Shown here: one piece after another, positions 4,917 through 62,231 of the stretch
How positions within the stretch are numbered: the first letter of the stretch is position 1
Layout: each line of letters begins with the position of its first letter
Source of the DNA: an uncultured Gammaproteobacteria bacterium
GTDB lineage: Bacteria > Patescibacteriota > Microgenomatia > Levybacterales > UBA12049
NCBI GenBank assembly: GCA_964571255.1
Contig: CAZNAA010000001.1
Location: 254,986 to 318,985 of the forward strand
Reading direction: 5' to 3'
DNA length: 64,000 nucleotides
Translations under genes and position numbers: made by a program
Notes under the pieces: model-generated
The model's input: only the letters and a program-made list of their open reading frames with translations
Told to the model about the DNA's origin: nothing
Databases searched by the model: none

Positions 4917-5444
4917 ATGAAAGTAGTTATCACTTCAAAAAATCCAGTAAAAATAAATGCAGTGAAGTATGGCTTTACTACCTGTTTTCCAAAAGAACAA
5001 TTTATCTTTCAATCTATTTCTGTCCCATCGGGTGTAAGTGACCAACCGATAAGTGATGAAGAAACGTACAAAGGAGCAAAACAAAGAGTAGAAAAGGCTA
5101 TAAAGGACAGACCTCTGGCAGATTATTGGATTGGGATTGAAGCAGGAGTCGATACAAAATACGAAGAAATGGATGCATACGCTTGGGTATATCTTAAAGA
5201 TAAGAACGGAAAAGAAGGAAAAGGAAGATCAGGAACATTCTTTCTCCCCGAAGAAATAGCTAGTTTAGTAAAACAAGGGTATGAGTTAGGAGTTGCTGAT
5301 GATATGTATTTTAAGAGAGTAAATTCAAAACAGAAAGACGGAACTATAGGTGCATTAACTCACAATATTGTGAATAGAACAGAGTATTACAAACAGCCAG
5401 TTATTTTTGCTCTTATCCCCTTTCTTAATCCTGAATTATTTTAA
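4917..5444 (+). CDS. yjjX: Inosine/xanthosine triphosphatase (non-canonical purine NTP phosphatase, YjjX/DUF84 family)
   Basis: MKVVITSKNPVKINAV... N-terminal signature of the YjjX ITPase family; 175 aa. Confidence 0.65.
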   Translation: MKVVITSKNPVKINAVKYGFTTCFPKEQFIFQSISVPSGVSDQPISDEETYKGAKQRVEKAIKDRPLADYWIGIEAGVDTKYEEMDAYAWVYLKDKNGKEGKGRSGTFFLPEEIASLVKQGYELGVADDMYFKRVNSKQKDGTIGALTHNIVNRTEYYKQPVIFALIPFLNPELF

Positions 5445-41948: not shown

Positions 41949-41997
41949 CTTAGATACACTGCCTCGTATCGAAAGTATTCTGCCCCAATCTAAACGT

Positions 41998-43119
41998 ATG
42001 AAACAAATCCATATTATTTTTGGACTTATTATTTTATTATCACCATCTCTTGCCTATGCTGATGAGATTGTAGTAACAGATAATGGAGCAGCATCAGTAA
42101 ATACAGCAGAATCTAATAACTCTCAAACAACTGTTGTACAACAAAATAATACAGCTACTGTTACCAATGTAGTTACGTCTTCTTCTAATACAGGAGATAA
42201 TCAAGCAAACAATACAACGGGTGGAAATACTGCTATTTCAACAGGAAATGCCACTACAGTAACAGATGTATCAACAAGTGGAAATAACTCAGTTAGCAAC
42301 GCAGGATGCTGTGTAGAGACTCAAGACAGCTCTGTAACGGTTAGTGGAAATGGAGCAATCTCAGTCAACTCAGGAAGTGCAAATCAGAACACTACAGTAA
42401 GTCAAACATCCAACAACACGATGTCTTTAACAAATACAGTTAAAGGAGTAGCAAATACTGGAGGAAATGTTGCTAATAGTTCCAATGGAAATGTGTATAT
42501 TGAAACTGGAAAAGTAACAATTATTACAAAAAATGAGAACGGTCCTATTAATACTGCTATCAACCAAGCTGGTGTCTCCACTCAATCACATACAAATCTC
42601 AAAATCTCAGGCAATGGAGCTGGATCAGTTAACTCAGTAACTGCCTCAAATGTATTTACCGTTACCCAAGTTGAAAATAACGTAGCAAATATTATTAATG
42701 ATATCTATTCCAATGGAAACTCAGGGGGAAATACAGCCTCTTTCACTGTTGGTGACGTTGTGATTAAAACAGGAGATGTGAGTATTCTTAATTATATTAA
42801 AAATGGACCAATCAACACTTCAATCTCAGAAGTAATTTGCTGTGATCCTGGTGAGAAAACACCTCCAACAGATAATCCTCCTACCACTCCTCCATCAAAC
42901 CCAGGAGGAGGAAGTGTAACAACAAATAATCCTGGAGGAGGGTCAAGTGGAAGTTCCAACGGAAGTAGTGGATCAACGAATAATCCTGGAAATGGTAGAG
43001 TTCTCCCTGCAACAGGTAACATTGGATATCTTCTTGCAATCCTTGCAAATACGCTTCTTCTTCTCTTCGGTGGTTGGCTAAGACTGCGCGCTGGAAACTC
43101 TCCAGGGTTTCTGATGTAG
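41998..43119 (+). CDS. LPXTG-anchored modular repeat protein C (cell-wall sorting signal LPATG)
   Basis: Signal peptide, same repeat family (VTDNGAASVNTAESNN...), Cys pairs AGCCVET and ICCDPGE, Pro/Thr-rich stalk, LPATG + hydrophobic stretch + RLRAGN tail. Confidence 0.75.
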   Translation: MKQIHIIFGLIILLSPSLAYADEIVVTDNGAASVNTAESNNSQTTVVQQNNTATVTNVVTSSSNTGDNQANNTTGGNTAISTGNATTVTDVSTSGNNSVSNAGCCVETQDSSVTVSGNGAISVNSGSANQNTTVSQTSNNTMSLTNTVKGVANTGGNVANSSNGNVYIETGKVTIITKNENGPINTAINQAGVSTQSHTNLKISGNGAGSVNSVTASNVFTVTQVENNVANIINDIYSNGNSGGNTASFTVGDVVIKTGDVSILNYIKNGPINTSISEVICCDPGEKTPPTDNPPTTPPSNPGGGSVTTNNPGGGSSGSSNGSSGSTNNPGNGRVLPATGNIGYLLAILANTLLLLFGGWLRLRAGNSPGFLM

Positions 43120-43126
43120 TCTAATG

Positions 43127-43155
43127 AAAAGAAGCGGAGAAATCCGCTTTTTTTA
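43127..43155 (+). terminator. Rho-independent terminator after repeat protein C (stem aagcgga/tccgctt, loop gaaa, T7)
   Basis: Read directly: aagcggagaaatccgcttttttt. Confidence 0.55.
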
Positions 43156-43194
43156 TGCTTTACAAGATATGTAGTAAAACAGTAGAATCACTTC

Positions 43195-43731
43195 ATGCGA
43201 AGTATGCGTCTTCTCTCAACCATTTGTATCATTCTTTCTCTATCAGGATTTGTTCTTTTAGGACTTCCTTTGGCTCTTTCCTACTTCCCCGCTCCTGTGG
43301 ATTTGTCTCACGAAGTATTTAGTCTTTCTATTCCAAAAATTAAAGCACAAGCCAAAATAGTTCCCTCAGTTGATCCATGGGATGAAGAAACATATAGTAA
43401 GGCATTGAAAGTAGGGATTGCTCAAGCAAAGGGATCAGGGTTACCAAGTGAAGAAAAAGGGATGTATCTTTTTGCCCACTCATCTCTTCCCTATTTAGAT
43501 ATGATCAAAACTCATCCTGTCTTTTTTCGTTTAGGAGAGTTACAAACAGGTGATCAGATATACATTACTTATAACAAGAAAGAGTATATCTATACTGTTA
43601 CGGATAAAAAGGTGATTTGGCCAACAGAAGTAGAATATTTGACAAATAATAAATTTGACTTAGTCTTACAAACGTGTACTCCACCAGGAACAGATTTTCA
43701 AAGGTTATTAATTTTTGCTAAGAAAAATTAG
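43195..43731 (+). CDS. Sortase (transpeptidase) family protein
   Basis: N-terminal TM anchor, His in LFAHSS, catalytic Cys motif LVLQTCTPPGT (TLxTC), conserved Arg in QRLLIFAKK; 178 aa. Confidence 0.8.
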   Translation: MRSMRLLSTICIILSLSGFVLLGLPLALSYFPAPVDLSHEVFSLSIPKIKAQAKIVPSVDPWDEETYSKALKVGIAQAKGSGLPSEEKGMYLFAHSSLPYLDMIKTHPVFFRLGELQTGDQIYITYNKKEYIYTVTDKKVIWPTEVEYLTNNKFDLVLQTCTPPGTDFQRLLIFAKKN

Positions 43732-49119: not shown

Positions 49120-49178
49120 GAAGTATGTTTAGTATAAACAGATAAAGAAGTAGATTATAGAGGTGAATTAAAAGTTTG

Positions 49179-49252
49179 TCGGGGACAGAAGACTCGAACT
49201 TCCGGCCTCACGGTCCCAAACCGCGCGCTCTAGCCAACTGAGCTAGTCCCCG
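49179..49252 (-). tRNA. tRNA-Pro (anticodon TGG)
   Basis: Reverse complement CGGGGACTAGCTCAGTTGGCTAGAGC...TTTGGGA...GGTTCGAGTC...GTCCCCG+A. Confidence 0.75.
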
Positions 49253-49298
49253 ATGAACTGAAGTCTATTGTACCTAAAAACCATTCTAACTTCAATCT

Positions 49299-50594
49299 TT
49301 AACGTGTATCTATTTGAATCGTCTTTCCATCTCTTAATATCCACCAAATAAGCTTCCCTGAAGGAGTACTGGTAAGAACGTCTTCTTTATCAAAGGCAAC
49401 TTGTCCAATATAGTAAGGAATTACTCCATCAATGGAATATGTGTATGATTTTTTATTTGCTAGCTCTGTATACCATTTCACTTCTAAATAAGTAATCGGA
49501 TCCTCAGTCATAATAAGATCTGTTGGTTGGGATTTAGCCAGAATCATTTGTACCTCTTCTCTGATATATGGCTTATTTACGGTATGGGTGATTTCATCAG
49601 CTGAGACATAACTCGCATAGAGAAAACTTCCAATAAGAAGTGTCAAAAGTAGTTTTGAAATCCTATTTTCACTCCATAATTTAGAAATTCCATAACTGAC
49701 AAACACAATAAAAAGAGGAAGTGAGGAAATAAGGTATCGTTCGTGATAAATGGGAGTCTTGTAGTGAGATAAATAATACGTCAGAATAATTGGGATAAAC
49801 GTTAAGAAGAGTGAAATAAGAGCTACCCTGTCAAACTTCTTTTCTTGCTTTGCAATATAGTAGGATACTCCAAAAACAGTAATAAGCAGACCAAAAAGAT
49901 ACACAGCTGCTTGAGATTCATGCCAAATATCCCCTCTTCCAAACTTTTCTAAAAGATGAGTGAACATGTAAGTAGTTTTCTCTGAAATCCAAAACTCCTC
50001 ACTAATCCTATTGAATTGGGTAATAAGGAAAATACTCCAAAAACTTCCTACTAGGAATGGAAGTGCAAAAATGCTTAGTCCTTCATGAAGATGTTTTAAT
50101 ACCTCTTTTCGTTTTTCATATACCCACCATATTCCTAGTGACAAGACATTAAAGTAGGCAAAATTATGAGTAAGTAAGGAGAGTGAGAGAATAACGCTTG
50201 CAAACAAATATTGTTTTTTAAGAATGAGTAATATAGTAAAGGCAGTAAGAAAGGCAAAAAGACTATATGGTCGAACCTCTGCTGCATATTGAATAAGAAG
50301 AGGATTCAAAAGCACTGAAAGGACAACACACACTCTTCCTAGAATAGAGCGAATATAGTGCTTAGAGATAAAATAAATAACAACAGCGAGTAATATATGA
50401 AAGCAAATGGATAAGGCTCTGAGTGCTACCTCTCCTGTTCCAAACAGATGCATCCAGTAGTGCAAAAGAAGAAAGTATAAGGGAGGACTTTGATCCTCAA
50501 GCATTTTATATACAATATTTAGTGGAGAATTTTTTGCAATTAAAACGGAAAAGGCTTCGTCTCTCCAGAGACTTTGGGTAAAAAGTGATAGCAT
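49299..50594 (-). CDS. GT-C fold glycosyltransferase (GT39/ArnT/PMT-like)
   Basis: N-terminal loop-1 motif WRDEAF, ~11 TM helices, C-terminal soluble domain. Confidence 0.7.
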   Translation of the reverse strand: MLSLFTQSLWRDEAFSVLIAKNSPLNIVYKMLEDQSPPLYFLLLHYWMHLFGTGEVALRALSICFHILLAVVIYFISKHYIRSILGRVCVVLSVLLNPLLIQYAAEVRPYSLFAFLTAFTILLILKKQYLFASVILSLSLLTHNFAYFNVLSLGIWWVYEKRKEVLKHLHEGLSIFALPFLVGSFWSIFLITQFNRISEEFWISEKTTYMFTHLLEKFGRGDIWHESQAAVYLFGLLITVFGVSYYIAKQEKKFDRVALISLFLTFIPIILTYYLSHYKTPIYHERYLISSLPLFIVFVSYGISKLWSENRISKLLLTLLIGSFLYASYVSADEITHTVNKPYIREEVQMILAKSQPTDLIMTEDPITYLEVKWYTELANKKSYTYSIDGVIPYYIGQVAFDKEDVLTSTPSGKLIWWILRDGKTIQIDTR

Positions 50595-50621
50595 GAGTTA
50601 ATCGTAGCAGAAATTTAGGGG

Positions 50622-50705
50622 TGCCGCGAGAGAGACTCGAACTCTCACATCCGATAAAGGACAAAGGCTCTTAAGGCCCTCGTGTCTACCATTCCACCAT
50701 CGCGG
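50622..50705 (-). tRNA. tRNA-Leu (anticodon TAA), long variable arm
   Basis: Reverse complement GCCGCGATGGTGGAATGGTAGACAC...CTTAAGA...variable arm...GGTTCGAGTCTC...TCGCGGCA. Confidence 0.75.
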
Positions 50706-50745
50706 CGAGTTTCTTTATTGTACTTGAAATACAGCTAAATCGCAA

Positions 50746-51423
50746 TTATTTACCATTTTTTATAAAGAGCAAATGACGAATATATTGCAAAATAGTATTT
50801 GCCCATAGTGCATAACCAAAATCAGACGGATGAAACCCATCTTCTGCTAACATTTCAGGATATCTTCTAGCAAACATCCCACTAAGAGGAAAGAGATCAA
50901 CAATAATTACTTTTGCTTCTTTTCCTCTTCTCTCAATTCTTGTATTAAACCTTTTTACTTGTAGCAAACTTGCTGTTCTCACTCCTTTTGGAACTGCAGG
51001 AGTAACAGACATATTAGGAATTGTATTGATAACGATCTCTGCATGCGTTTCTCTTTTTAGTCGTTTGAGAATGATTTGAATATCTTTTTCAAACTCTAAA
51101 ATATTTCGTCTGTAACGCACATCGTTTGCTCCAATTGAGATTGTTACTAAATCAGGGGAAAGAGCAATGGATTTATCTAATTGTTCAGTCACTAAGTCTT
51201 TTGCAGTTGAGTCAAGTCGACCTAAGTTATAAAATTTTGCTTGTTTATAACTTCCTTTTATTGCTTCAAAGATAATAGCAGGATAGGTTCTATCAGGACT
51301 TGTTGCTCCAAGTCCTTCAACAGTACTATCTCCTAATGCAACGTAGGTGAAAGGGCGTTTCTTTAAAGGAAACGTTCTGATAAAAAGAGTCCGTAAAAAT
51401 AAGTAAATTCGTCTTAAAAACAT
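50746..51423 (-). CDS. SGNH/GDSL hydrolase
   Basis: Block I VALGDSTVEG, block III GANDV, C-terminal DxxH (DGFHPSD). Confidence 0.75.
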   Translation of the reverse strand: MFLRRIYLFLRTLFIRTFPLKKRPFTYVALGDSTVEGLGATSPDRTYPAIIFEAIKGSYKQAKFYNLGRLDSTAKDLVTEQLDKSIALSPDLVTISIGANDVRYRRNILEFEKDIQIILKRLKRETHAEIVINTIPNMSVTPAVPKGVRTASLLQVKRFNTRIERRGKEAKVIIVDLFPLSGMFARRYPEMLAEDGFHPSDFGYALWANTILQYIRHLLFIKNGK

Positions 51424-51492
51424 ATGCTGTATTGTAGCCTACTCTTGCTTTATTTGCATTTTAAATGCTTTTTGGTAGAATAAGAAAGTCTT

Positions 51493-51563
51493 GCGGGTGT
51501 AGTTCAATGGTAGAACAGTAGATTTCCAATCTGCATACGAGGGTCCGATTCCCTTCACCCGCT
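51493..51563 (+). tRNA. tRNA-Gly (anticodon TCC)
   Basis: GCGGGTGTAGTTCAATGGTAGAAC...TTTCCAA...GGTCCGATTCCC...CACCCGC+T. Confidence 0.7.
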
Positions 51564-51571
51564 CATATTCT

Positions 51572-52717
51572 TCACTTATTTGTTCCTACTACTTGATGAT
51601 ATACTGCTTCATAACCTGGAATTATTTTCTCAGCTGTAAACTCATGAGAAGCTTTATAAGCCTCCTTGGTAAATGAATGTATCTTTTCTTCATCAACAAA
51701 GTGAGTAAGGATATGAGAAGCAAGTCCATCAATATCTCCAACGTCTGCCAAGTATCCTAATCTGTCATGCGTAATTACTTCAGAAATTCCTCCCACGTTT
51801 GTACTAAAAACTGGAACCCCATACGCAAGTGCTTCAAGTCCTACTAGACAAAAACTTTCATATTCTGAAGTAATAATTAACCCATCTGCAATTTCAAGAA
51901 AAGAGTAGGGATTTTTTACTCTGCCTACAAAATGAATGGAATCTTGGTTACGAACAGTCTCTTTTTGCTTTTTGATATTTTCAATTTCAGGACCTTCCCC
52001 AATAAGGAGTAAAACTGCTGGCATTTTTTTATTTACTTTTGAGAATATCTTGATGCAGTCCCCTATTCGCTTAATAGGTCTAAAGTTTGATATATGTACG
52101 AAAACTTTTTCATTTGAAGATGCATATTTCTTTTTTAACTGGGGACGAATTGCTTTTTGAGGAAAGGTAGAAAAGTTAATAAAGTTATATATTACTTCAA
52201 TTTGTTTTTTACACGCATAGATTTGCTTTGCTCTTTTAGCTAAATCGTTGGATACTGCAGTAACTCTGTCACTTTCTTCAAGGACGTATTTCATGATTTG
52301 AGGCACTTCTTGACCAAGACTCAACACATCGGTTCCATGCAACGTAGTTACTACTTTAATATCAATTCCTTTTTGTTTTAAAATTTCTCTTGCTTGCAAT
52401 GCGCAATAGGCAAAAGGAATAGCAAAATGAGCATGAATAAGATCTAATTTATGAAGAATTACTGCCTCAACAATCCCTTCAGTTAAGGATGCTTCGTTAA
52501 GCGGACTACTAAATAAAGCATGTTTTACATTGGATACTTTATGAAACATGATATTGTGCTTATTCATTCGAAATGGAAAATCTACTCCAATAAAAACAAC
52601 CTGATACTTATTCGTTTTTGCTAAATATTGAGCGAGTTCTGATCCCACTACCCCACTTCCACCAAGCCATGGAGAACACACAATACCAATTGAGAGTTTT
52701 TTAACGGAGTTTTTCAT
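51572..52717 (-). CDS. GT4 glycosyltransferase (BshA-like retaining glycosyltransferase)
   Basis: N-terminal GGSGVVGSELA, EX7E-like C-terminal motif; 381 aa. Confidence 0.8.
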   Translation of the reverse strand: MKNSVKKLSIGIVCSPWLGGSGVVGSELAQYLAKTNKYQVVFIGVDFPFRMNKHNIMFHKVSNVKHALFSSPLNEASLTEGIVEAVILHKLDLIHAHFAIPFAYCALQAREILKQKGIDIKVVTTLHGTDVLSLGQEVPQIMKYVLEESDRVTAVSNDLAKRAKQIYACKKQIEVIYNFINFSTFPQKAIRPQLKKKYASSNEKVFVHISNFRPIKRIGDCIKIFSKVNKKMPAVLLLIGEGPEIENIKKQKETVRNQDSIHFVGRVKNPYSFLEIADGLIITSEYESFCLVGLEALAYGVPVFSTNVGGISEVITHDRLGYLADVGDIDGLASHILTHFVDEEKIHSFTKEAYKASHEFTAEKIIPGYEAVYHQVVGTNK

Positions 52718-53865
52718 TACAAGAGTGCTTTTTTGTAGATTGAGAGAAGTTTAGAATGAATATTATCAGTAGATACTTCATGCTTAATGTCCTCACGGGT
52801 ATTGTCTCCAATACGTGAAGTGCTCATTTGTTTCACTTTATCATAGACTGCTTTTACAGAATGGAAATCAATAATTAGATTATCCAAACCTACCTTTCTA
52901 AAGGTTTCAGATACTCCCATATTTGAACTCACGAATGCAGGTGTACCAGACGCTACTGCTTCTTGAGGAACATTTCCATAAGTCTCAAAATGAGATGGAC
53001 AAAGTACCATTCCCATTCGTCCATAAAACTTCGCAAGTTTTGTTGCATCCATTGGCGAAAGAACTTTAGCAAATTGAGACGCTTTCTTGTCTTTTTCCTT
53101 CATTAAACTAGTATCAGTTACGATTGTGATATTAAAATAACCTCCCATTTTTTCATTGTATTTAACAAATTTTTTAATAAACTCAGGATTTTTGACTGGA
53201 CTCCATCTTCCTACTACACCAATATTTCTCGCTGATCCTTTAGTAGAAATATCAAAATAGTGATCTTGAATTGAGTTTGGAAGGATAGCACTTTGTGCGA
53301 TGGAATGACCAAATACTTCTTCTTCAACTACCTTTTTTGATAAAAGCGAAGGGAAAATATAATGGAGACGTTTATTATCAAATGTTTGTTCCATCTCCTT
53401 CATTAACTGACGTGCATGAGGAGTCCATGTTTCTGTTTCTTTGGTTAGAATTCCATGATAGTGCAAAACGAGTGGTAATTTAGTTTCTCGTGCAGCAAGA
53501 TATAAACACCAAGGAATAAAGTAAGTCCCATTAATGACAATTAAATCAGGTTTTTCTTCACTAATAATTTTCTTGTAGTATTCAATAATATGTTGATACT
53601 TTTTTTGGATTTCTTTTAATGAAGTAACTGTTTCGAGAAGTGGCTGAATCTTCTCACATTCAATTTCTTGCGTAATAATAGTAAAAGGACTATTTACCTT
53701 ACGAGAAGAGATCAGAGAAGATCCTTTCGTATATTTCCGAAGCACATCAATTCCGATTATTTCTACTTCTTGATCGTTTTGATTGGAAAGAAATTCTTTA
53801 AACGATGCTAAAGCTTGAGTAATTCCTCCTACTTGAACAGATTGAATGTTTGTTAATATTTTCAT
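52717..53865 (-). CDS. GT4-family glycosyltransferase
   Basis: C-terminal ETYGNVPQEAVASGTPAF (EX7E); stop/start overlap with the downstream GT4 gene. Confidence 0.75.
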   Translation of the reverse strand: MKILTNIQSVQVGGITQALASFKEFLSNQNDQEVEIIGIDVLRKYTKGSSLISSRKVNSPFTIITQEIECEKIQPLLETVTSLKEIQKKYQHIIEYYKKIISEEKPDLIVINGTYFIPWCLYLAARETKLPLVLHYHGILTKETETWTPHARQLMKEMEQTFDNKRLHYIFPSLLSKKVVEEEVFGHSIAQSAILPNSIQDHYFDISTKGSARNIGVVGRWSPVKNPEFIKKFVKYNEKMGGYFNITIVTDTSLMKEKDKKASQFAKVLSPMDATKLAKFYGRMGMVLCPSHFETYGNVPQEAVASGTPAFVSSNMGVSETFRKVGLDNLIIDFHSVKAVYDKVKQMSTSRIGDNTREDIKHEVSTDNIHSKLLSIYKKALL

Positions 53866-54093
53866 AAAAGTACGTTTTTACTACGTACAATGAAATATAA
53901 TCATAAGTTTGTTATTGTTTTTTGAATGTTCGTTCCATAGACAAAATTTCTAACAATAGGGTCTTTTGTAAGTAGTAGAGCATTATAGCATATAATGACA
54001 AAAAAAATTGAGGAACAGTAAGAGAACTATGTAATAAAACAGTATGAATAAGGGTATTATCTCATGATTATTACAGGATTAATTCGGTTAATT

Positions 54094-55086
54094 TTATTCT
54101 TCCTTAGAGTTAATATTGTTAAAGATAACAATCATAAAGGAGATAAAAGGAATAGAAAGAAGGGCTCCAACAATTCCCATCACACTTCCTCCAACAGTAA
54201 TTCCTAAAATAACCAGAATAGGATTCATTCCCACCGCTCGTTGCATAACATTTGGAACAAGTACATGGTTTTCAAATAATTGAATGACAATATAGGCAAT
54301 AGTGACTGCTAGAGCAAGTGTTGGTGAAATGGTGAGTGCTACGATAATTGCAGGAATTGCTGAGATGATTGGACCAATTGTTGGAAGTACTTCAAGTAGC
54401 CCAGCCATTAGAGCTAATGGAAGTGCATACTCCATTCCTAAGAATGAAAGAATAATCCAGGTTAAAATTCCAATGACAAATGATAATACTACTTGTCCTC
54501 GCATCCACGCTCCTAGCTTGTCATCGACCTGAGTCATAGTCGTAGTAACTCTTTCATGAAGCTTTGAAGGAAATAATCCTACAAACCACTCTTGGAACTG
54601 ATCCCTATAGAAAAGTAAATAGAAACTAACGATAAGAATCGTGAAAAGAGTGAAAACTCCTCCAAAAACACGACTAGTAAGAGAAACAGCGTTTTGACTC
54701 AAGTTTCCAATTTCTGAAGCAAGGTATCCTTGAACTGCATCCGCGTCAATCGGAATTCCAAGAATCTGAGTTGTTTCGTTAAGATATCTTGGCAATCCTT
54801 CAAAAAGTCCTTGTGTTTGTGTAATTGAGAAAGGAATAAGAGGAACAATCACAACTATAATTGCAAAAAGAACTCCGAAAAAAGGAATAAGAACACTGAG
54901 GATTCTTGGGAATTTGTGACGTCTTAAAAAGTGAACAAAGGGAATAAGAGCTGCCATAATGATATAGGATAAAAATACAGACGCCCAAATACCACGAGTT
55001 TCAAAAACAAACCACCCAAAAAGAAGCATGAAAACAGTAAGAACAACTTGGTTTCTTAAAAGATAAGAATAAAGCTTTTCAATCAT
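54094..55086 (-). CDS. AI-2E family transporter (PerM/UPF0118)
   Basis: 330 aa, 8 TM helices, typical AI-2E topology and N-terminal pattern. Confidence 0.75.
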   Translation of the reverse strand: MIEKLYSYLLRNQVVLTVFMLLFGWFVFETRGIWASVFLSYIIMAALIPFVHFLRRHKFPRILSVLIPFFGVLFAIIVVIVPLIPFSITQTQGLFEGLPRYLNETTQILGIPIDADAVQGYLASEIGNLSQNAVSLTSRVFGGVFTLFTILIVSFYLLFYRDQFQEWFVGLFPSKLHERVTTTMTQVDDKLGAWMRGQVVLSFVIGILTWIILSFLGMEYALPLALMAGLLEVLPTIGPIISAIPAIIVALTISPTLALAVTIAYIVIQLFENHVLVPNVMQRAVGMNPILVILGITVGGSVMGIVGALLSIPFISFMIVIFNNINSKEE

Positions 55087-55231
55087 ATATCTGTATGATA
55101 CGTAAGAAAAATTAAGAAGTCAAACAAGGTCCAACTAGATAATCTCTACTTAGGTAATTGTATCTTTTCTTATGGGATATATCAAGCGTGGTTGCACTTA
55201 TGGGTAATGATTGATAAAATACACTTACCTT

Positions 55232-55304
55232 GCCCCTGTAGCTCAGAGGATAGAGCTGGTCGGTTCTAACGACAAGGTCGGGGGTTCGAATCCCTCCAGG
55301 GGTA
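55232..55304 (+). tRNA. tRNA-Arg (anticodon TCT)
   Basis: GCCCCTGTAGCTCAGAGGATAGAGC...GTTCTAA...GGTTCGAATCCC...CAGGGGT+A (G1·U72 pair). Confidence 0.7.
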
Positions 55305-55330
55305 CATAGTTATAACGATGTCTTAAGTAT

Positions 55331-56464
55331 CTACTTTATGGAGTACATAACTCCTCTTGTACTTCCGATTTTTTTAATATATTTTTTAATTTCCAACTGT
55401 TTAATGTTATATCGAAGAGTTCTATCAGGAATACTTAGAAATCTTCTTTTTATTTGATCAAAAGAAAGAATTTTGTGTTCCCTAATAAGAAGTAAGATCT
55501 CTTTTCGTCTTGGGAGAAGCGTATCTTCTTCACTAAGAGCTTGAGGCTCTGCAAATTGCCCTTTTAGTTTGTCTGACTGCTCAAGGATAAGTTGTAAGAT
55601 ATATTCTATAAACCCAGTAGCATCAGACTGATCAAGAAGTGAATAATAACTTTGTTTTTTTTCTTGAAGCAGCTCCTCAACCGATAAGAGCCAATCAAAA
55701 TGATAATTAGATCTGGCAAGAAGTACTTGAAGAAGTAATCTCCCTACTCTCCCGTTTCCATCCATAAACGGGTGAATCTTTTCAAAGGACATATGAGCCA
55801 AAGCTGCTTGAATTAAAGGAGGACTATCAGATTTAGTATTTAAAAAAGTAAGAAGTGAAACAAGAAGAGAGGTAATTTCTGAGGGAGGAGGGGTCATATA
55901 GACAACATTTCCAAATTGATCAAATATCGCACTAGGTTCTGTACGCATTTTTCCAGCGTGTGAATCATGAACTAATTTATGCATGACCATTTTATGAAGT
56001 GTTTGAATAAAGTGGATGTCTATTACCTCAGGAAGTGGAGTTTCTTGAAGAAAGGTCAAAGTAGTAATAATATTCTCTATCTCTTGATATTCATATTGCT
56101 TCTGACTCATCTCCTCACTCTCTGATGCGTACTGTTCAAGAGAAATTGTATTTCCTTCAATTTGTGCTGAGTAAACAGAACTTTTTAGTAAGCTTTGTCT
56201 TTTTAGATTTAGGTATACTTCTTTAGGAAAAGATAAATGAGTAAATTGAGACCTATTAACTTCAATTTGACTAATAAGTTGAATCATTCTATTTGTGAGC
56301 TGATATGGGGGTGGAATAGGTATCATTGCCAAATACAGATAAATGTTACCAAATACTGCCAAATATTGCCAGATCATCATGATTCTTTTCTTTTGATTAG
56401 CCGCTAACTTGTGGCACCTAATACTATTTTTTACACTTGCAAAACATTGACAAGATGCCCACAT
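55331..56464 (-). CDS. Fic family protein, class II (internal inhibitory motif SAQIEGN)
   Basis: Fic motif HPFMDGNGRVGR; inhibitory [ST]xxxE[GN] at SAQIEGN upstream; 377 aa. Confidence 0.8.
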   Translation of the reverse strand: MWASCQCFASVKNSIRCHKLAANQKKRIMMIWQYLAVFGNIYLYLAMIPIPPPYQLTNRMIQLISQIEVNRSQFTHLSFPKEVYLNLKRQSLLKSSVYSAQIEGNTISLEQYASESEEMSQKQYEYQEIENIITTLTFLQETPLPEVIDIHFIQTLHKMVMHKLVHDSHAGKMRTEPSAIFDQFGNVVYMTPPPSEITSLLVSLLTFLNTKSDSPPLIQAALAHMSFEKIHPFMDGNGRVGRLLLQVLLARSNYHFDWLLSVEELLQEKKQSYYSLLDQSDATGFIEYILQLILEQSDKLKGQFAEPQALSEEDTLLPRRKEILLLIREHKILSFDQIKRRFLSIPDRTLRYNIKQLEIKKYIKKIGSTRGVMYSIK

Positions 56465-56481
56465 GACTTTATTCTAATTAA

Positions 56482-56952
56482 GTGAGAGTTTGTGTAAGGT
56501 GTAGAAATCAATTTCAAACAACAAGTAGACATCTCTCCTGCTCTAGTTGCAGAAAGAAATCTTACAAAAACCGTTGCACATCGTGCGGAGAGTTAAAGCA
56601 GCGTAAATCAAAGTTGTGCATAAATTGTTTTAAACAAAGTAAACAATATCCATACTCAAAAACAAAACATCTAAGTAAAAATGGCTATTATTATGTTTAC
56701 TACAGAGCACATCCATGCTCCGATAAAGAAGGAAGAGTTTTCGAGCATCGTCTCATTATGGAAAAGAAATTAGGAAGATATTTACTTCCATTTGAAAATG
56801 TTCATCATAAAAACGGTATAAGAATGGATAATAGGATTGAAAACTTAGAACTGTGGGTTAAATCACAGCCTACTGGCGCGAGAGTTGAAGATGTTGTAAA
56901 ATGGGCAAAGGAAGTTTTAAGGTTATATGGTGATGTTAGCTCAGTTGGTTAG
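56482..56952 (+). CDS. HNH endonuclease (phage-type HNH_3) with N-terminal Cys-rich zinc-finger region
   Basis: CxxC pairs in the N-terminus; EHRLIMEK...NVHHKNGIRMDNRIENLELW (HNH His/Asn core). 3' end overlaps tRNA-His by ~24 nt. Confidence 0.65.
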   Translation: MRVCVRCRNQFQTTSRHLSCSSCRKKSYKNRCTSCGELKQRKSKLCINCFKQSKQYPYSKTKHLSKNGYYYVYYRAHPCSDKEGRVFEHRLIMEKKLGRYLLPFENVHHKNGIRMDNRIENLELWVKSQPTGARVEDVVKWAKEVLRLYGDVSSVG

Positions 56953-57006
56953 AGCATCAGTTTGTGGTACTGAGGGTCGCCGGTTCAAGTCCGGTACATC
57001 ACCCCA
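56929..57006 (+). tRNA. tRNA-His (anticodon GTG) with genomically encoded G-1 and CCA
   Basis: G-GTGATGTTAGCTCAGTTGGTTAGAGC...TTGTGGT...GGTTCAAGTCC...ACATCAC-C-CCA. Confidence 0.8.
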
Positions 57007-57086
57007 AAAATTTTAGCCTCGGAAAAACATATCAAACTACTTCACCCTAAGACTGAGTTCGAACTTCTGCTATACTAGTCATTAGT

Positions 57087-57683
57087 ATGAGAAAGATTAT
57101 TGTTGTTGAATTTTCTACTCTTGATGGTGTTATTCAAGCACCAGGTGACTCCAAAGAAGATGCAGCAGAAGGTTTTAAATACGGCGGATGGATGGGACCA
57201 TATTTTGACAAAGATAATGTTTTAGGTGAAGAAATGGAAAAACAAATGAAAGAGACCTCTGGTCTTCTTCTTGGACGAAAAACCTACGACATCTTCGTAG
57301 GATATTGGCCAGAACACACAGAACCGTGGCCCCAAATCAACAAAATTCCTAAATATGTTGTCTCAAAAACCCTAAAAAACCCGACTTGGGAAAATACTGT
57401 AGTGATAAAAGATATCAATGAGTTAAAAAAGCTAAAGAACTCAGATGGTCCAGATTTACAGGTCTATGGAAGTGCAAACCTTGTTCAGACATTAATGGAG
57501 CATGATTTGGTAGATGAGTTTTGGCTTAAAATATTTCCTCTCACCCTTGGTACAGGGAAAAGATTGTTTGATAAAGGTACAATACCTGCTACCTTCAAGG
57601 TTGTTAAATCTAAAATTTCCCCAAGTGGTGTCATTATTGCATACTACAAACGCGAGGGAGGAGTTAAAACAATGTCTGTCTAA
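57087..57683 (+). CDS. Dihydrofolate reductase family protein (RibD C-terminal/YwjB-like)
   Basis: MRKIIVVEFSTLDGVIQAPG...LLLGRKTYD pattern; 198 aa. Confidence 0.7.
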   Translation: MRKIIVVEFSTLDGVIQAPGDSKEDAAEGFKYGGWMGPYFDKDNVLGEEMEKQMKETSGLLLGRKTYDIFVGYWPEHTEPWPQINKIPKYVVSKTLKNPTWENTVVIKDINELKKLKNSDGPDLQVYGSANLVQTLMEHDLVDEFWLKIFPLTLGTGKRLFDKGTIPATFKVVKSKISPSGVIIAYYKREGGVKTMSV

Positions 57684-57913
57684 ACAATAGCGAAAGATTT
57701 TTGGTAAAAGACTATTTCCTGTAAGGATATTTTAGAATAATAGGTTCGGACAGCATTCGGTAGCTGACCCTATAGTATTTAATAGATCTATATATACCTA
57801 TCTTTATCAAAAGATATAGTCTCAACTTGTACTTCCAATTTTCTGACAACGAGTTTGTGCATTTAACTAAATGCACCCCAAAACCATACTTAAAACTCTG
57901 ATATAATCTTACT

Positions 57914-58354
57914 ATGGATATAAGGATTTGGGATTCTTCGGGAAAGTATAAAGAAGGGTTTGTCAAAGAATATAAACATTGGGTATTAGAGGTAAGTTTT
58001 CTCCAACATACACTTGGTTGTTTCATTATTTTTGCAAAAAGAAATGTTGAAAGAATTTCTGAGCTTAACGATGATGAAGTCGTAGAACTTAGAAGTGTAA
58101 TGAAAGAATTAGAAGCAACTCTTTCAGCTATTGAAGAATTCAAGCCAGATAGATTTAACTATCTCCAAATGGGAAATGCCTTGCATCATTTGCACTTTCA
58201 TACAATACCACGATATGCAAAACCTAGAAATTTTGTAAATAGAGAATGGATTGATACAACATTCGGACATCCTCCTATTTGGAGCAAAGTAGAAGTAGAT
58301 AACGAAATAGTTTTTGCCATTAAGAAAACGTTTTTATCTCAACTCAATAAGTAA
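57914..58354 (+). CDS. HIT (histidine triad) family hydrolase
   Basis: Histidine triad HHLHFHTI (HxHxHxx); 146 aa. Confidence 0.6.
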   Translation: MDIRIWDSSGKYKEGFVKEYKHWVLEVSFLQHTLGCFIIFAKRNVERISELNDDEVVELRSVMKELEATLSAIEEFKPDRFNYLQMGNALHHLHFHTIPRYAKPRNFVNREWIDTTFGHPPIWSKVEVDNEIVFAIKKTFLSQLNK

Positions 58355-58413
58355 AATGTTATTCGGCGGGTTACTTCAAATTTAAGTTTCAATTTTAACA
58401 TTAAAAAATAAAT

Positions 58414-58797
58414 ATGGACATTCAAGCGTATAACAACTCTCAAACTCCTTCCGATAAAGAAATTTGTGAATTATTAAACACAGAAATCACTAACAATCTT
58501 CCAGATGCAGAAAGTAAAATTTGGCATGGTCATCCAGTCTGGTTTTTGGAAGGAAACCCAGTAGTAGGATATAGTAAGCTAAAAGGAAACGTTCGTTTAC
58601 TCTTTTGGAGTGGTCAATCTTTTGATGAAGCTAGCTTACAACCAGAAGGTACCTTTAAAGCAGCAGAAGCTAGATATACAAATCGTAACCAAGTTAATCT
58701 TGATGATTTACATCGTTGGCTCAAAAAGGCAACAGAAATTCAATGGGATTATAAAAATATTGTTAAACATCGCGGAGTACTAGAAAAATTGAGATAA
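58414..58797 (+). CDS. DUF1801 (YdhG-like) domain protein
   Basis: 127 aa; ...IWHGHPVWFLEGNPVVGYSKLKGNVRLLFW pattern of DUF1801. Confidence 0.5.
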   Translation: MDIQAYNNSQTPSDKEICELLNTEITNNLPDAESKIWHGHPVWFLEGNPVVGYSKLKGNVRLLFWSGQSFDEASLQPEGTFKAAEARYTNRNQVNLDDLHRWLKKATEIQWDYKNIVKHRGVLEKLR

Positions 58798-58906
58798 GAT
58801 ACTACTCACCTCATGATTTTTTCTCTTTAGAATATAGACAATTATATTTACAAATAGGCTTACAAACAATCACTTTTGACTATTTACAATAAGCTTTACA
58901 TATATA

Positions 58907-58935
58907 TTGACAATTAAAGTGTGGTATGCTATACT
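58907..58935 (+). promoter_or_regulatory. Near-consensus sigma-70 promoter TTGACA-17-TATACT, only 6 nt upstream of the Fic ATG (possible leaderless transcript)
   Basis: ttgaca(58907-58912)-attaaagtgtggtatgc-tatact(58930-58935); ATG at 58942; no SD. Confidence 0.4.
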
Positions 58936-58941
58936 TAACAC

Positions 58942-59985
58942 ATGTTTAAGCCAAAGTTTGAGCTCACTTTTCGCATTGTTAACGAACTATCCTCCATTGA
59001 AAGACTCTATGGTCAACTCATGGGTGAAAAACTCATTCCTTCCCTCTCTCTTCGTCTTTCTCAAGAGAATCAGATTCTTGCTACTCACCACTCAACTAGT
59101 ATTGAAGGAAATCCCCTTTCTCCTTATGACGTAACAAATATTATTCTTGGTGATCAAATTCCCCAAAATAAGTCTGAGAAAGAGGTAAAAAACTACTTTT
59201 CAGTTCTTAATATGCTCACTCCTCTTGTCCACAAAAGAGAGCCAATAACAGTTAAACTAACCGAGACTCTTCATAAACAATTACTGGAGGGAATTGAAAA
59301 AAAAGATGTAGGAAAAATTCGAGATAGTGGTGTGTTTGTTGGACACCAGTCCCAAGGAGAAATCGTTGTCAAACACGCTCCACCATTGCATACAGCTAAA
59401 GAAATCACTGAAGCTCTTGAGGCAATTTATGAATGGCTGCAAACTCCAACTGAGTATCCTCCTCTTATTAAAGCAGCTATTTTTCACCATCAATTTGCTT
59501 ATATCCATCCATTTTTAGATGGAAACGGGCGTCTTGCCCGTATCCTTACTGCCTATTACTTGTTACTTAATAAATATGAAGTCACTAAGTTTTTTATTCT
59601 TGATGATTTTTATGATATTGACCGTCATCTCTACTCAGATACCCTTCATGAAGCAGACAAAGGCAAACTTATAGAGTGGATTGAGTACTTTTTGGAAGGA
59701 ATCTCCTTTTCCCTTCAAGCTGCACTGAATAGAATTGATGAAATGAAGAAAATTAATATGGAGGAGATTAAAGGAGAAAAACGCGTACTCGTTACGCCTC
59801 GTGAAGAAGAAGTGTTACAAATTGTGATTGAGAAAAAAGCAATAAAAACTCCTGATGTTGAGGAAGTATTGGAAGTGACCCGTCAACAAGCTCATTCTCT
59901 ACTTGCATCATTAGTGAAAAAAGGACTCTTGGATAAATTTGGCAAAACAAAAACAAGTTATTACAAGTTAAAAGCCAAGAATTAA
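58942..59985 (+). CDS. Fic family protein, class II, with C-terminal winged-HTH-like domain
   Basis: Fic motif HPFLDGNGRLARIL; inhibitory motif STSIEGN upstream; 347 aa. Confidence 0.8.
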   Translation: MFKPKFELTFRIVNELSSIERLYGQLMGEKLIPSLSLRLSQENQILATHHSTSIEGNPLSPYDVTNIILGDQIPQNKSEKEVKNYFSVLNMLTPLVHKREPITVKLTETLHKQLLEGIEKKDVGKIRDSGVFVGHQSQGEIVVKHAPPLHTAKEITEALEAIYEWLQTPTEYPPLIKAAIFHHQFAYIHPFLDGNGRLARILTAYYLLLNKYEVTKFFILDDFYDIDRHLYSDTLHEADKGKLIEWIEYFLEGISFSLQAALNRIDEMKKINMEEIKGEKRVLVTPREEEVLQIVIEKKAIKTPDVEEVLEVTRQQAHSLLASLVKKGLLDKFGKTKTSYYKLKAKN

Positions 59986-60019
59986 TACTTCTTTTTACAG
60001 ATCTTGTATAATAGCCTAT

Positions 60020-60898
60020 ATGGCAAAAAAGAAATTCCTAACAGTCGGAAAGTATTCCTTTTGTTATACTCCACTTCCCTTCCCTCTTCTTATTACTCTG
60101 GCAACCCTTTTTTTCCTTTCTCTTTGTTTTCTTTTTCTAGTTTATCCTTCACCCAGACCTCATACAGAATATGCCTATCACCAGGCCATCACCTTGACTC
60201 AACCTGTCTCATCTGTTGCTCAGGCTCAAGACTTTTGCCAGACAGTTCCAGTTCTTTTGTATCATCATATCCAACCACTCCAGGAAGCAAAGAAACAAGG
60301 TCACGCCTCACTCACTTTGGATACAGCCGTTTTTGAGCAACAAGTTAGATATATTGTTGATCAGGGATACCTCACCCTTTCTGCTGAAGAGCTTGTTACA
60401 TCTCTTCTTGATAAAGTAGAAGTTCCAGAAAAATCAATCCTTCTCACCTTTGATGATGGATATGCAGATTGGTATACCTATCTCTATCCCCTTCTCACTA
60501 AGTATCAAATCCATGCTAACTTTATGATTCCAAGTGGACTTATTGGAACACCAGGATACGTAACGTGGGAGCAACTTCAAGAGATGGAACAAAGTCCCTT
60601 TGTCACAGTTTATAACCATACCTGGTCACATAAGGCGTTAGGGGATGCATCTAAAGAGCTGATTGACCTAGAACTTACAGCCTCTCAAAACGAGTTTGAA
60701 AAGTACTTGGGAGTTATTCCCTCTGTTTTCACCTATCCTTATGGTTCAAAAAGTGCAGCTACTGCAGCTCGATTAAAACTTCATGGCTTTCAAGGAGCGT
60801 TTACTACCCAACATGGAAGGATTCAATGCCTATCATCTATTATGAATTTACCTCGAGAACATATTGGCAACGCTCCTCTTTCTTTCTACGGTCTCTAA
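60020..60898 (+). CDS. Polysaccharide deacetylase (NodB/CE4 family), membrane-anchored
   Basis: N-terminal TM, CE4 motif LLTFDDGYADWY, His motifs HTWSH. Confidence 0.8.
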   Translation: MAKKKFLTVGKYSFCYTPLPFPLLITLATLFFLSLCFLFLVYPSPRPHTEYAYHQAITLTQPVSSVAQAQDFCQTVPVLLYHHIQPLQEAKKQGHASLTLDTAVFEQQVRYIVDQGYLTLSAEELVTSLLDKVEVPEKSILLTFDDGYADWYTYLYPLLTKYQIHANFMIPSGLIGTPGYVTWEQLQEMEQSPFVTVYNHTWSHKALGDASKELIDLELTASQNEFEKYLGVIPSVFTYPYGSKSAATAARLKLHGFQGAFTTQHGRIQCLSSIMNLPREHIGNAPLSFYGL

Positions 60899-60968
60899 TA
60901 AACTGATCTCTTTTGATCCTTTTTATTCTCTTTTATTTCGTATTAGTTTCTAGTAATTTATATTAACA

Positions 60969-62231
60969 GTGCAAAAATGTATTCTCCATATTGATTTTGA
61001 CTCCTTCTTTGCCAGTGTCGAGCAACAGGACCATCCAGAGTTTCGAGGAAAGCCGTTAGGGGTTACCGCAACGAATGGTCGAACCTGTATTATCGCAGCC
61101 TCACGGGAAGCCAAAAAAAGAGGAATCAAATCCCCTTCCAGTACCTATACAGCAGAGCTCATCTGTCCAGAAATTCAATTTACTAAAGCCAACTTCACTC
61201 GGTATTGGGAGATAAGTAAGGAATTTATTAAAATCTGTAAAAGCTTTAGTCCCTTTATTGAAGTCTTCTCTCTTGATGAGTTATTTATGGATGTTACCAA
61301 AACTGCTCATCTTTTTGGAGGAGTTGCTCCTCTGATAAACATGCTTAAAAAGCGCATTCATGACGAGATAGGCCCCTTCATCACAGTTTCCATAGGTATT
61401 GCAGAAAATAAGTTATTAGCAAAGCTAGCATCAGGAATGAGAAAGCCTAATGGGTTTTTTGTCATTCCTCCTGAGAAAGTAGCGGAAGTTTACTCCACTT
61501 CTCAATTAACAGATATCTGTGGAATTGGTCCTCGAATTGAAAGACGACTGCAACAAATGGGAGTCTATACTCTTTTGCAACTAAGAAAAATTTCTGTTGT
61601 CTCACTCATGGCTGAATTTGGCGTAGTTGAAGGTAACTTTCTCTACAACGTTGGACAAGGAATTGACCACTCCCCAGTTGTTCCCTATACGCAAGCTGAG
61701 GAAACAAAAAGTATTGGGAGAGATTATTGCCTCCCAGGCAACGAATATAATGAACGAGCAGTCTATCAGCTTGTTTATGAATTATCTGAAGAGTTAGGGA
61801 TAAAGTTAAGACGAATTCATAAAAAAGCCAGGCGCGTATCCGTATATCTCGGAGGAAGCATTCAAGTCTATTCTCATAAAACCTCTCATTTATATTTGCA
61901 AACAGGTAAAGAAATTTTTTCACAGTGTTTTGCGCAAATCAACTCTCCCACTTCTGGGTTTTTTGATATCGAGAGAGAAAATCGATATGTGAGACGAATT
62001 GGGATTGGCGTTTCTTCCTTAGCTGATGAGGCATGTATTCCTTCTGACCTTTTTGGAGAAAAAGAAAAACAAGACACTCTAACTCACGTAACAGATTTGA
62101 TCAATGAACGATTTGGAGATCATACGATTCGTAATGGATTCTTACTCTATGCCAAAAAGCTTACAACTGTTCCGAATGGGTTTATGGCTGATAGATATGA
62201 GAGACAACTTCTCTCCAGGGACCTTATTTAG
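60969..62231 (+). CDS. dinB: DNA polymerase IV (Y-family)
   Basis: ILHIDFDSFFASVE, SLDELFMDVT, little-finger domain; 420 aa. Confidence 0.9.
   Translation: MQKCILHIDFDSFFASVEQQDHPEFRGKPLGVTATNGRTCIIAASREAKKRGIKSPSSTYTAELICPEIQFTKANFTRYWEISKEFIKICKSFSPFIEVFSLDELFMDVTKTAHLFGGVAPLINMLKKRIHDEIGPFITVSIGIAENKLLAKLASGMRKPNGFFVIPPEKVAEVYSTSQLTDICGIGPRIERRLQQMGVYTLLQLRKISVVSLMAEFGVVEGNFLYNVGQGIDHSPVVPYTQAEETKSIGRDYCLPGNEYNERAVYQLVYELSEELGIKLRRIHKKARRVSVYLGGSIQVYSHKTSHLYLQTGKEIFSQCFAQINSPTSGFFDIERENRYVRRIGIGVSSLADEACIPSDLFGEKEKQDTLTHVTDLINERFGDHTIRNGFLLYAKKLTTVPNGFMADRYERQLLSRDLI

Follow-up and report, generated by a model that had tools for sequence, protein, structure and literature searches.

At the core of the region described here is a compact genetic unit in which a gene for an HNH_3 endonuclease (hereafter HNH) runs in frame into the transfer RNA (tRNA) gene tRNA-His(GTG) and is preceded by a decayed partial copy of the same tRNA. 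The unit lies within a 64,000-nucleotide (nt) stretch, called the window, of a Patescibacteria (Microgenomates-type) chromosome. We read it as a selfish nuclease cassette of approximately 0.6 kb, of the free-standing homing-endonuclease type and specialized on tRNA-like genes, and give this reading a probability of roughly 0.55. It builds on the anatomy and conservation of the cassette, on purifying selection acting on a gene that is nevertheless dispensable, and on the association of the wider nuclease family with transfer-messenger RNA (tmRNA) genes. Features are collected in Table 1; loci from other genomes carry L numbers.

The HNH gene, tRNA-His and the upstream stub

The HNH protein, 156 amino acids (aa) in length, is built of two zinc ribbons, the HNH core and a C-terminal helix, and ends in a disordered tail of seven residues encoded by the tRNA. 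An earlier note on this DNA had placed the 3′-end of the gene about 24 nt inside tRNA-His, and this is borne out by the open reading frame (ORF; 56482-56952) and the position of G-1 (56929). Counted from G-1, the 24 nt of overlap (G-1 and tRNA positions 1-23) hold the last eight codons with the TAG stop. The protein ends in "...LYGDVSSVG," and the TAG in the D loop of the intact tRNA is the stop codon of HNH. The encoded G-1, which lies opposite C73 (57003), and the encoded CCA (57004-57006) are likewise present as the note had described.

The same-frame overlap recurs in all 20 other locus records that carry HNH (17 non-redundant loci). In contigs L005, L006 and L007, whose neighboring genes differ in each case, the gene enters tRNA-His by 23-32 nt. 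The 156-aa query returned 2330 homologues; the best 80 or so are 62-81% identical and mostly exactly 156 aa long, and those that are named come from Levybacteria, Daviesbacteria and other Microgenomates. The C-terminal motif YG(G/D)(V/I)SS.., which is the translated 5′-end of tRNA-His, is found in approximately 95 of the 120 best homologue clusters, one of which reads through the entire tRNA. Recurrence of the overlap on this scale is far more than chance would give. In metagenomes, a pattern drawn from the tRNA-His 3′ half matched 38 loci: 18 have a same-frame HNH gene, 13 have none although their upstream sequence extends for at least 500 nt, and seven are too short to tell.

Residues E88, H89, H108, H109, N111, D116, N117 and N121 and four cysteines are invariant in 23 sequences. 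Together with the HNH_3 and PHROG matches, they mark the protein as a homing-endonuclease-family nuclease that retains its catalytic residues. The AlphaFold2 (AF2) model of the protein has a predicted local distance difference test (pLDDT) score of 79.5, falling to about 50 in the tRNA-encoded tail. Foldseek with this model ranked I-HmuI first, with an E-value of 0.6, and a phmmer search of HNH against PDB gave zero matches.

Gene callers shorten the HNH ORF to 64-138 aa, with loss of the zinc-ribbon domain; the product is 64 aa in L001 (822-1016) and 87-138 aa in many clusters. The shortening appears to be caused by the GTG start, the absent ribosome-binding site and the tRNA overlap.

The ratio of nonsynonymous to synonymous divergence (dN/dS) among 17 copies is about 0.1, with synonymous sites saturated. 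The gene has also been lost or broken repeatedly. In L101 an IS200/IS605-type transposase gene with flanking hairpins sits inside the HNH ORF (approximately 426-975, with tRNA-His on the plus strand), in L111 two in-frame stops make it a pseudogene, and in L115 a deletion has left only its last 47 nt. HNH is absent from L104, L117, L122 and others, and some of these tRNA-His genes are identical to that of an HNH-bearing locus. By these comparisons HNH is under purifying selection yet dispensable. Presence/absence polymorphism with degenerate copies is what the invasion, decay and loss cycle of a homing gene predicts; the empty sites examined look like losses.

Synonymous-site identity among the 17 homologues is about 0.5 along the ORF, 0.63-0.74 in the 20 or so codons ahead of the tRNA (56870-56928, codons ~131-149) and 0.87 in the overlap. 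Either a constraint on the nucleic acid or a co-conversion gradient therefore reaches upstream of the tRNA, and the rise is compatible with both co-conversion and plain constraint.

At about −110 to −65 from the HNH start lies a truncated 5′ part of tRNA-His on the same strand. This stub is near-perfect in L113, L103, L118, L126 and L106 (z = 11-25 versus shuffles), and that of L126 scores 37.8 bits with the Rfam tRNA model, reaching its threshold. It is decayed in the window, L005, L006, L133, L124 and L101; we call the window sequence a stub because of its position and its TGTGG motif. Of the 18 non-redundant loci, 16 have this motif, the core of the anticodon loop, at −72 to −78; its background frequency is 0.0009 per nt. 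Homology to the tRNA stops after approximately position 41 in some loci and position 55 in others. A displaced 3′ part, complementary to the acceptor strand of the stub, was sought downstream of the cassette and not found.

The stubs differ in type from the intact tRNAs of the cassettes: their acceptor 5′ strand reads GTGG(N)TG and their D loops are short, where the intact tRNAs have GTG(G/A)TGT and mostly a longer D loop. Locus L136, which has no HNH gene, contains an intact tRNA-His with a stub-type acceptor (GTGGTTG) and its own promoter, and has its trailer and RibD_C gene in common with the window. The pattern for this stub/L136 type of tRNA-His, as opposed to the cassette type, is GGTGGYTGTAGCTCA...TTGTGGA. 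The anticodon arm of the stub is closer to the intact tRNA of its own locus than to those of other loci (106 matches versus 90.6 +/- 6.0; 141 of 20000 permutations), a result in line with a common origin of the segment, with intra-locus gene conversion or with a co-evolving binding site. The stub of L132, located at about −115 to −85 from the HNH start, has a GC-rich palindrome, CCCGCCTGCCGGCAGGCAGG, inserted in its D arm.

Between stub and gene lies the cassette promoter. In the window its −10 element stops 6 nt before the GTG start of HNH; across all loci the sigma-70-type promoter ends 6-9 nt ahead of a start codon that in 10 of 17 cases is GTG. An HNH mRNA made from it would thus have no leader or next to none. 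All 18 loci have a −35-like hexamer and 17 of them a CC(A/G)C box, each at a constant distance. The CCACA box is located in the promoter spacer at −22 to −24 from the HNH start (consensus: TTGACA-N5-CCACA). Taken together, TGTGG, the −35 and the CCACA box hold fixed positions in 16-18 of the 18 loci, with backgrounds below 0.001 per nt. The scan gave no other plus-strand promoter-like site between the cassette promoter and tRNA-His, and in the last 60 nt of the HNH ORF neither the scan nor inspection by eye gave a convincing sigma-70 match that could serve as an internal tRNA promoter. Because no other such site lies in between, tRNA-His is probably transcribed through the HNH gene.

The family extends beyond tRNA-His. 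Viral contigs contain at least 574 relatives of HNH with 40-51% identity over the full length, in keeping with its match to a phage HNH family (PHROG 20891). Eight loci have a relative with 40-54% identity adjoining the 3′-end of a tmRNA gene. The tmRNA is followed by HNH in L010 and L138 of the candidate phyla radiation (CPR), next to smpB, and in viral locus L027; HNH converges on the tmRNA in L014, L140, L022, L025 and L028. In L010 and L138 the same promoter with its CCACA box starts a few nt past the tmRNA 3′-end (3 nt in L010), a geometry also seen for the tRNA-His stub and HNH.

On phage-like contigs the 3′-ends of HNH and tmRNA overlap by 19 nt in L140 (3459-3477) and are 2-3 nt apart in L025 (2107-2112). 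The L140 arrangement is a second kind of overlap between an ORF and an RNA gene in the same HNH family.

Origin of the cassette

The course of events that we propose is as follows. The cassette would have inserted into a tRNA-His gene already present, displacing the 5′ part of it and supplying in exchange a working tRNA-His that could be transcribed only through the nuclease gene. With expression of tRNA-His dependent upon it, the nuclease gene would therefore be hard to lose. The enzyme is presumed to recognize the anticodon-arm and T-arm regions of tRNA-His gene DNA and to cut alleles that lack the cassette, whereupon repair would copy the cassette in, the tRNA sequence providing the homology arms. 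Candidate operators for self-repression are the two sequences on either side of the −35, TGTGGA in the stub and the CCACA box in inverted form. Cleavage by RNase P at G-1 might in addition strip the stop codon from the HNH mRNA, keeping nuclease output low.

Taken at its widest, this would describe a selfish element of a new kind in CPR bacteria, which holds an essential tRNA hostage: it would truncate the resident tRNA-His, replace it with a copy of its own that cannot be separated, in its promoter and first 24 nt, from the nuclease gene, and repress itself via copies of the anticodon loop around the −35. With the same family on tmRNA genes in other bacteria and phages, it would belong to a general class parasitic on tRNA-like genes that needs neither integrase nor intron. 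We put this wider proposal forward tentatively, as an idea with clearly less than even odds.

Several observations weigh against a selfish origin. The window stub is not significant when taken alone (z = 1.3). The flanks of TGTGG and the CCACA box show no significant covariation (p = 0.17), so that the link between them is limited to the shared core motif. The intact tRNA of the cassette still holds the presumed target, leaving self-immunity unaccounted for. The metagenome pattern was fitted to the cassette-type tRNA and is biased against naive alleles, and the readable HNH-less sites, L115 and L122, look like losses and not like naive sites. HNH identities of 77, 70.5 and 66% in L006, L126 and L133, the only three loci with a host marker, are roughly congruent with those of DinB (61, 62 and 55%). 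Since they roughly track DinB divergence and their synonymous sites are saturated, the sampled HNH copies look old and largely vertical in descent. Cleavage and homing are, finally, predictions of the selfish reading.

Much of this would also be expected of a domesticated, vertically inherited host gene, which is a serious rival to the selfish cassette. One ancient rearrangement would have set HNH between two copies of tRNA-His, with vertical descent and occasional loss ever since; the gene would be kept for DNA repair, defense or control of tRNA-His expression, and the stub would survive by gene conversion from the intact copy or as a regulatory site. A dN/dS of about 0.1 with saturated dS, a length (156 aa) and position that are constant in some 95 clusters, HNH identities that rank like those of DinB in the three loci, a stub anticodon arm that tracks the intact tRNA of its own locus, and the loss-like appearance of the examined HNH-less sites are all in its favor. 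It sits less well with loss or inactivation by three different routes, or with relatives that are phage HNH genes and tmRNA-flanking cassettes. Nor does it readily explain why near-perfect stubs exist beside fully decayed ones and yet keep their acceptor and D-loop differences from the intact copy, and no neighboring gene hints at a host function. On balance we consider domestication rather unlikely, while taking it seriously.

Two other explanations have fared worse. The earlier note saw mobile-element remnants in a tRNA-flanked island; on such a model site-specific recombination would have built an island bounded by tRNAs, with the Fic genes as toxin modules and HNH as a passenger. There is a mobile-element signature, in that a 5′ part of tRNA-His flanks the HNH cassette of about 0.6 kb only, and it does not extend to a tRNA-bounded island. 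Differing cargo among relatives, the wide transfer of RibD_C and an IS66 transposase beside tRNA-His in L136 would suit an island. Against this, no integrase domain was detected in eight ORFs scanned across 54094-60898. The att-like direct repeats of tRNA 3′-ends that the note had suggested were searched for over 53800-61200, where only short chance families were found. There is no shift in composition (GC 0.31-0.39 inside the region and 0.28-0.42 outside) or in skew, the backbone from tRNA-Arg to tRNA-His is conserved in many relatives, and the Fic inhibitory helix is in cis, with no separate antitoxin ORF. The island model is thus largely refuted, and we hold it to be very improbable. A group I intron or split tRNA, with HNH as the intron-encoded protein as with tRNA-Asn and tRNA-Asp of Patescibacteria, seems scarcely credible. 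Such introns with HNH genes do occur in Patescibacteria tRNA genes (PMC13011429), and the stub ends near the anticodon arm in several loci. However, an Rfam search of 53000-62000 at E ≤ 1 returned only two tRNAs and no Intron_gpI match, the downstream tRNA-His is complete, canonical and uninterrupted (64.4 bits), no 3′ exon complements the acceptor strand of the stub, and the HNH of the window is PF13392, as opposed to PF01844 in that report.

Fic proteins and other neighboring genes

The gene order is tRNA-Arg, Fic1 (minus strand), HNH, tRNA-His, RibD_C, HIT, DUF1801 and Fic2. The earlier note had the two Fic genes bracketing tRNA-Arg as well; HNH, tRNA-His, RibD_C, HIT and DUF1801 do lie between them, and tRNA-Arg is outside.

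Table 1. Features of the window discussed in the text, with positions counted from its first nucleotide.
Feature	Position	Strand	Evidence
tRNA-Arg(TCT)	55232-55305	+	ARAGORN; Rfam 57.9 bits
Fic1, assigned to class II Fic, C-terminal winged helix	55331-56326 (ORF to 56464, 377 aa)	-	Pfam Fic 2e-20
Decayed stub, tRNA-His 5′ part	56375-56420 (core ~56396-56419; TGTGG 56410-56414, −72 from HNH start)	+	Position and motif
Cassette promoter	56447-56475	+	−35 TTGACA 56447-56452, CCCACA box 56458-56463, −10 TATTCT 56470-56475 (promoter scan)
HNH_3 endonuclease gene, 156 aa	56482-56952	+	Pfam HNH_3 7e-10; PHROG 20891 1e-33
tRNA-His(GTG)	56930-57006, G-1 at 56929	+	ARAGORN; Rfam 64.4 bits
tRNA-His trailer and RibD_C promoter/leader	57007-57086	+	Includes gagttcgaacttc (57055-57067) and extended −10 TGCTATACT (57068-57076)
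RibD_C (dihydrofolate reductase-like reductase), cargo	57087-57683	+	Pfam 5e-23
HIT-family protein, cargo	57914-58354	+	Pfam HIT 1.2e-6
DUF1801 protein, cargo	58414-58797	+	Pfam 5.7e-9
Fic2, assigned to class II Fic, C-terminal winged helix	58942-59985	+	Pfam Fic 7e-19; weak MarR/TrmB matches
DinB (Y-family polymerase), conserved right-flank marker	60969-62231	+	tblastn 48-62% identity in L006, L126, L133

tRNA-Arg(TCT) is also found upstream of tRNA-His in L006, L007, L104, L113, L115-L118, L122, L125, L127 and L133; in all, the pair recurs in over a dozen related loci. The two belong to a series, Pro(TGG), Leu(TAA), Gly(TCC), Arg(TCT) and His(GTG), the order of which recurs in distant relatives. 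It is compact in L115 (4845-8974) and L127 (301-2703) and dispersed by protein genes over 49178-57006 in the window. The stretch from tRNA-Arg to tRNA-His is a conserved backbone and not an att pair, and the five-tRNA series as a whole looks like a conserved backbone that takes up insertions.

What lies on this backbone varies among relatives, a point that the earlier note had suggested checking, both between Arg and His and between His and DinB. The spacer from tRNA-Arg to tRNA-His is empty in L104, L115 and L117; contains a small GIY-YIG ORF in L122 and L127, HNH alone in L113, L118 and L133, and GIY-YIG plus HNH in L125; and holds a rhomboid gene plus HNH in L006 and L007 and Fic1 plus HNH in the window. 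Fic1, a lineage-specific gene, fills a slot that is held in relatives by a rhomboid gene, a GIY-YIG ORF or nothing. From tRNA-His to DinB, the window, L006 and L133 each have a different set of small genes. The genomes compared are distant (AI-2E 45%, DinB about 50-60% identity), so that differences in gene content are to be expected. A scan of the genome collection for the AI-2E transporter brought up no more than two loci, both distant; the one of use ends 210 nt short of the region. For this protein the nearest species representative, a "Patescibacteria group bacterium," has 47% identity, and an identical copy is carried by two Logan contigs, from SRR8893622 and SRR8893623. We regard Fic1, RibD_C, HIT, DUF1801 and Fic2 as unrelated accessory cargo in a tRNA-rich stretch of variable gene order. 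The region is variable and carries transferable cargo, but is not a bounded integrase-type island, since it has no integrase, no tRNA 3′ repeat and no composition shift.

The GIY-YIG (YhbQ-like) ORFs lie at 4121-4421 in L122, 2333-2628 in L127 and 343-640 in L125 (coordinates with tRNA-His on the plus strand). They are a second kind of small nuclease gene in the Arg-His spacer, and the L122 copy may be a pseudogene.

Both Fic proteins have the Fic motif and the internal inhibitory motif reported for them by the earlier note. Fic1 and Fic2 are 27% identical over their full length and share HPF[ML]DGNGR and an upstream S(A/T)(Q/S)IEGN. In Fic1 the motifs are SAQIEGN and HPFMDGNGRVGR, with PDB matches to 4RGL, SoFic and FICD; in Fic2 they are STSIEGN and HPFLDGNGRLAR, with matches to 7XUX, 4RGL, FICD and SoFic. 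SoFic (3EQX/3ZCN), FICD and 4RGL resemble both window proteins in having HPFx(D/E)GNGRxxR and, N-terminal to it on the same chain, (S/T)xxxE(G/N), and SoFic shares with them a C-terminal winged helix. The window proteins score 69-85 bits against the 550-bit cut-off of the NCBIfam SoFic equivalog. By motif and best solved relatives, then, both are predicted to be cis-inhibited class II proteins, the subclass to which the note had assigned them. No small partner ORF with an inhibitory motif, as a separate antitoxin would be, adjoins either gene. A class I Fic/Doc toxin-antitoxin module was considered and ruled out by the presence of the inhibitory motif in cis in both proteins; the note's suggestion of AMPylation-type toxin or regulatory modules is unsupported as regards a two-gene toxin-antitoxin system. 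Nothing connects the Fic proteins to the HNH cassette. The start of Fic1 is probably M47 (56326): the first 46 codons of the ORF cover the upstream region of the HNH cassette, and the alignment with Fic2 begins at residue 52. A homologue of Fic2 with 59% identity adjoins tRNA-Arg(TCG) in L099.

Pfam matches confirm the dihydrofolate reductase-like (RibD_C), HIT and DUF1801 genes of the earlier note. HIT and DUF1801 gave zero matches in any CPR locus compared. RibD_C, by contrast, has 7933 homologues at E ≤ 1e-40, many about 80% identical and in unrelated contexts; copies with 86-89% identity also occur in unrelated contexts, one adjoining an IS66 transposase. In L136 an IS66 transposase adjoins tRNA-His. 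Because copies that are 80-89% identical occur in unrelated surroundings, RibD_C cannot be used as a guide to close relatives, and it was dropped as such; it still yielded L136, the allele without HNH.

The 13-mer gagttcgaacttc, about 50 nt past tRNA-His, exists as the note had described, and belongs to the promoter and leader of RibD_C rather than to a tRNA fragment. The interval of about 80 nt between tRNA-His and RibD_C is conserved in L117 and L136, both of which have RibD_C directly after tRNA-His, and an element similar to the RibD_C leader precedes AAA_18 in L006. Most other HNH loci lack the 13-mer after tRNA-His and have unrelated sequence there.

A leader of the form ...ATATCAAACTA...TCGAAC(T/C)T(C/T)TG(C/G)TATA(C/A)T is found in the window (57019-57086), L117, L136 (4560-4643), L006 (~5257-5320) and L019 (~4490-4535). 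The genes behind it are RibD_C, AAA_18 and an HNH homologue on a viral contig. One possibility is that this ATATCAAACTA leader is a regulatory site specific to the lineage and placed within the promoter spacer.

After DinB the window has two minus-strand ORFs, and L133 has the same order (DinB, orf271, orf276). Elsewhere in the window, 39717-43731 encodes two large Ser/Thr/Asn-rich repeat proteins (743 and 373 aa) that have signal peptides as well as C-terminal anchors; a small sortase-like ORF comes after them. The stretch is probably a locus for surface proteins and a sortase.

Relation to known systems

Homing endonucleases in tRNA clusters have precedents among phages. SegB of coliphage T4, a GIY-YIG enzyme encoded in a tRNA cluster, has a site that includes a T-stem-loop motif, and drives inheritance of itself and the neighboring tRNA genes (PMC2330249). 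HNH genes lie inside phage-derived tRNA arrays of mycobacteria (PMC6582537). Like these, the cassette has a small nuclease gene between tRNA genes; unlike them, it is chromosomal, occurs in CPR bacteria and is tied to tRNA-His. It differs further in the 24-nt in-frame overlap with the tRNA, the leaderless-type promoter with its CCACA box and the truncated tRNA copy upstream, and is known from sequence alone. The literature searched contained HNH genes in tRNA clusters as well as Patescibacteria tRNA genes with group I introns, and no description of the tRNA-His cassette.

Integrative elements insert in tRNA and tmRNA genes and restore them from their own sequence, according to Williams (2002) as cited in PMC9897764. 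On that summary, they resemble the cassette in leaving a partial tRNA copy as a direct repeat and in obtaining the functional tRNA from element-borne sequence, and their preferred targets, tmRNA and tRNA, are those of the wider HNH family. Compared with the elements so described, the cassette has no integrase, measures only about 0.6 kb, duplicates the 5′ and not the 3′ part, and appears to bring in a whole tRNA of a different sequence type.

Two further parallels come from other systems. Mobile endonuclease ORFs of fungal mitochondria, for instance that in atp6 of Allomyces, insert at a gene end and bring along a substitute for the end that they displace. There, as in the cassette, the nuclease travels with a duplicate of part of its host gene while the original piece decays alongside; the hosts are protein-coding genes of organelles, affected at the 3′-end, whereas here the 5′ part of a bacterial tRNA gene is involved. 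I-TevI represses its own synthesis via an operator that resembles its homing site. This could serve as a model for the TGTGGA and CCACA boxes around the −35, an analogy that remains purely inferential given that the flanks of the boxes do not covary.

Shortening of the HNH ORF by gene callers that avoid the tRNA is a systematic annotation problem. The enzyme itself is a defined candidate for a nuclease that recognizes tRNA-His gene DNA or, in relatives, tmRNA gene DNA. Were it merely domesticated, the overlap would still offer a clean case in which a tRNA and a coding sequence have had 24 nt in common for a long evolutionary time. If the selfish reading is correct, the cassette would represent a compact means, free of integrase and intron, by which a selfish gene can establish itself in an essential RNA gene, with the replacement tRNA expressed only via the element itself. 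This would help to explain why nuclease genes are retained in the very small genomes of CPR bacteria.

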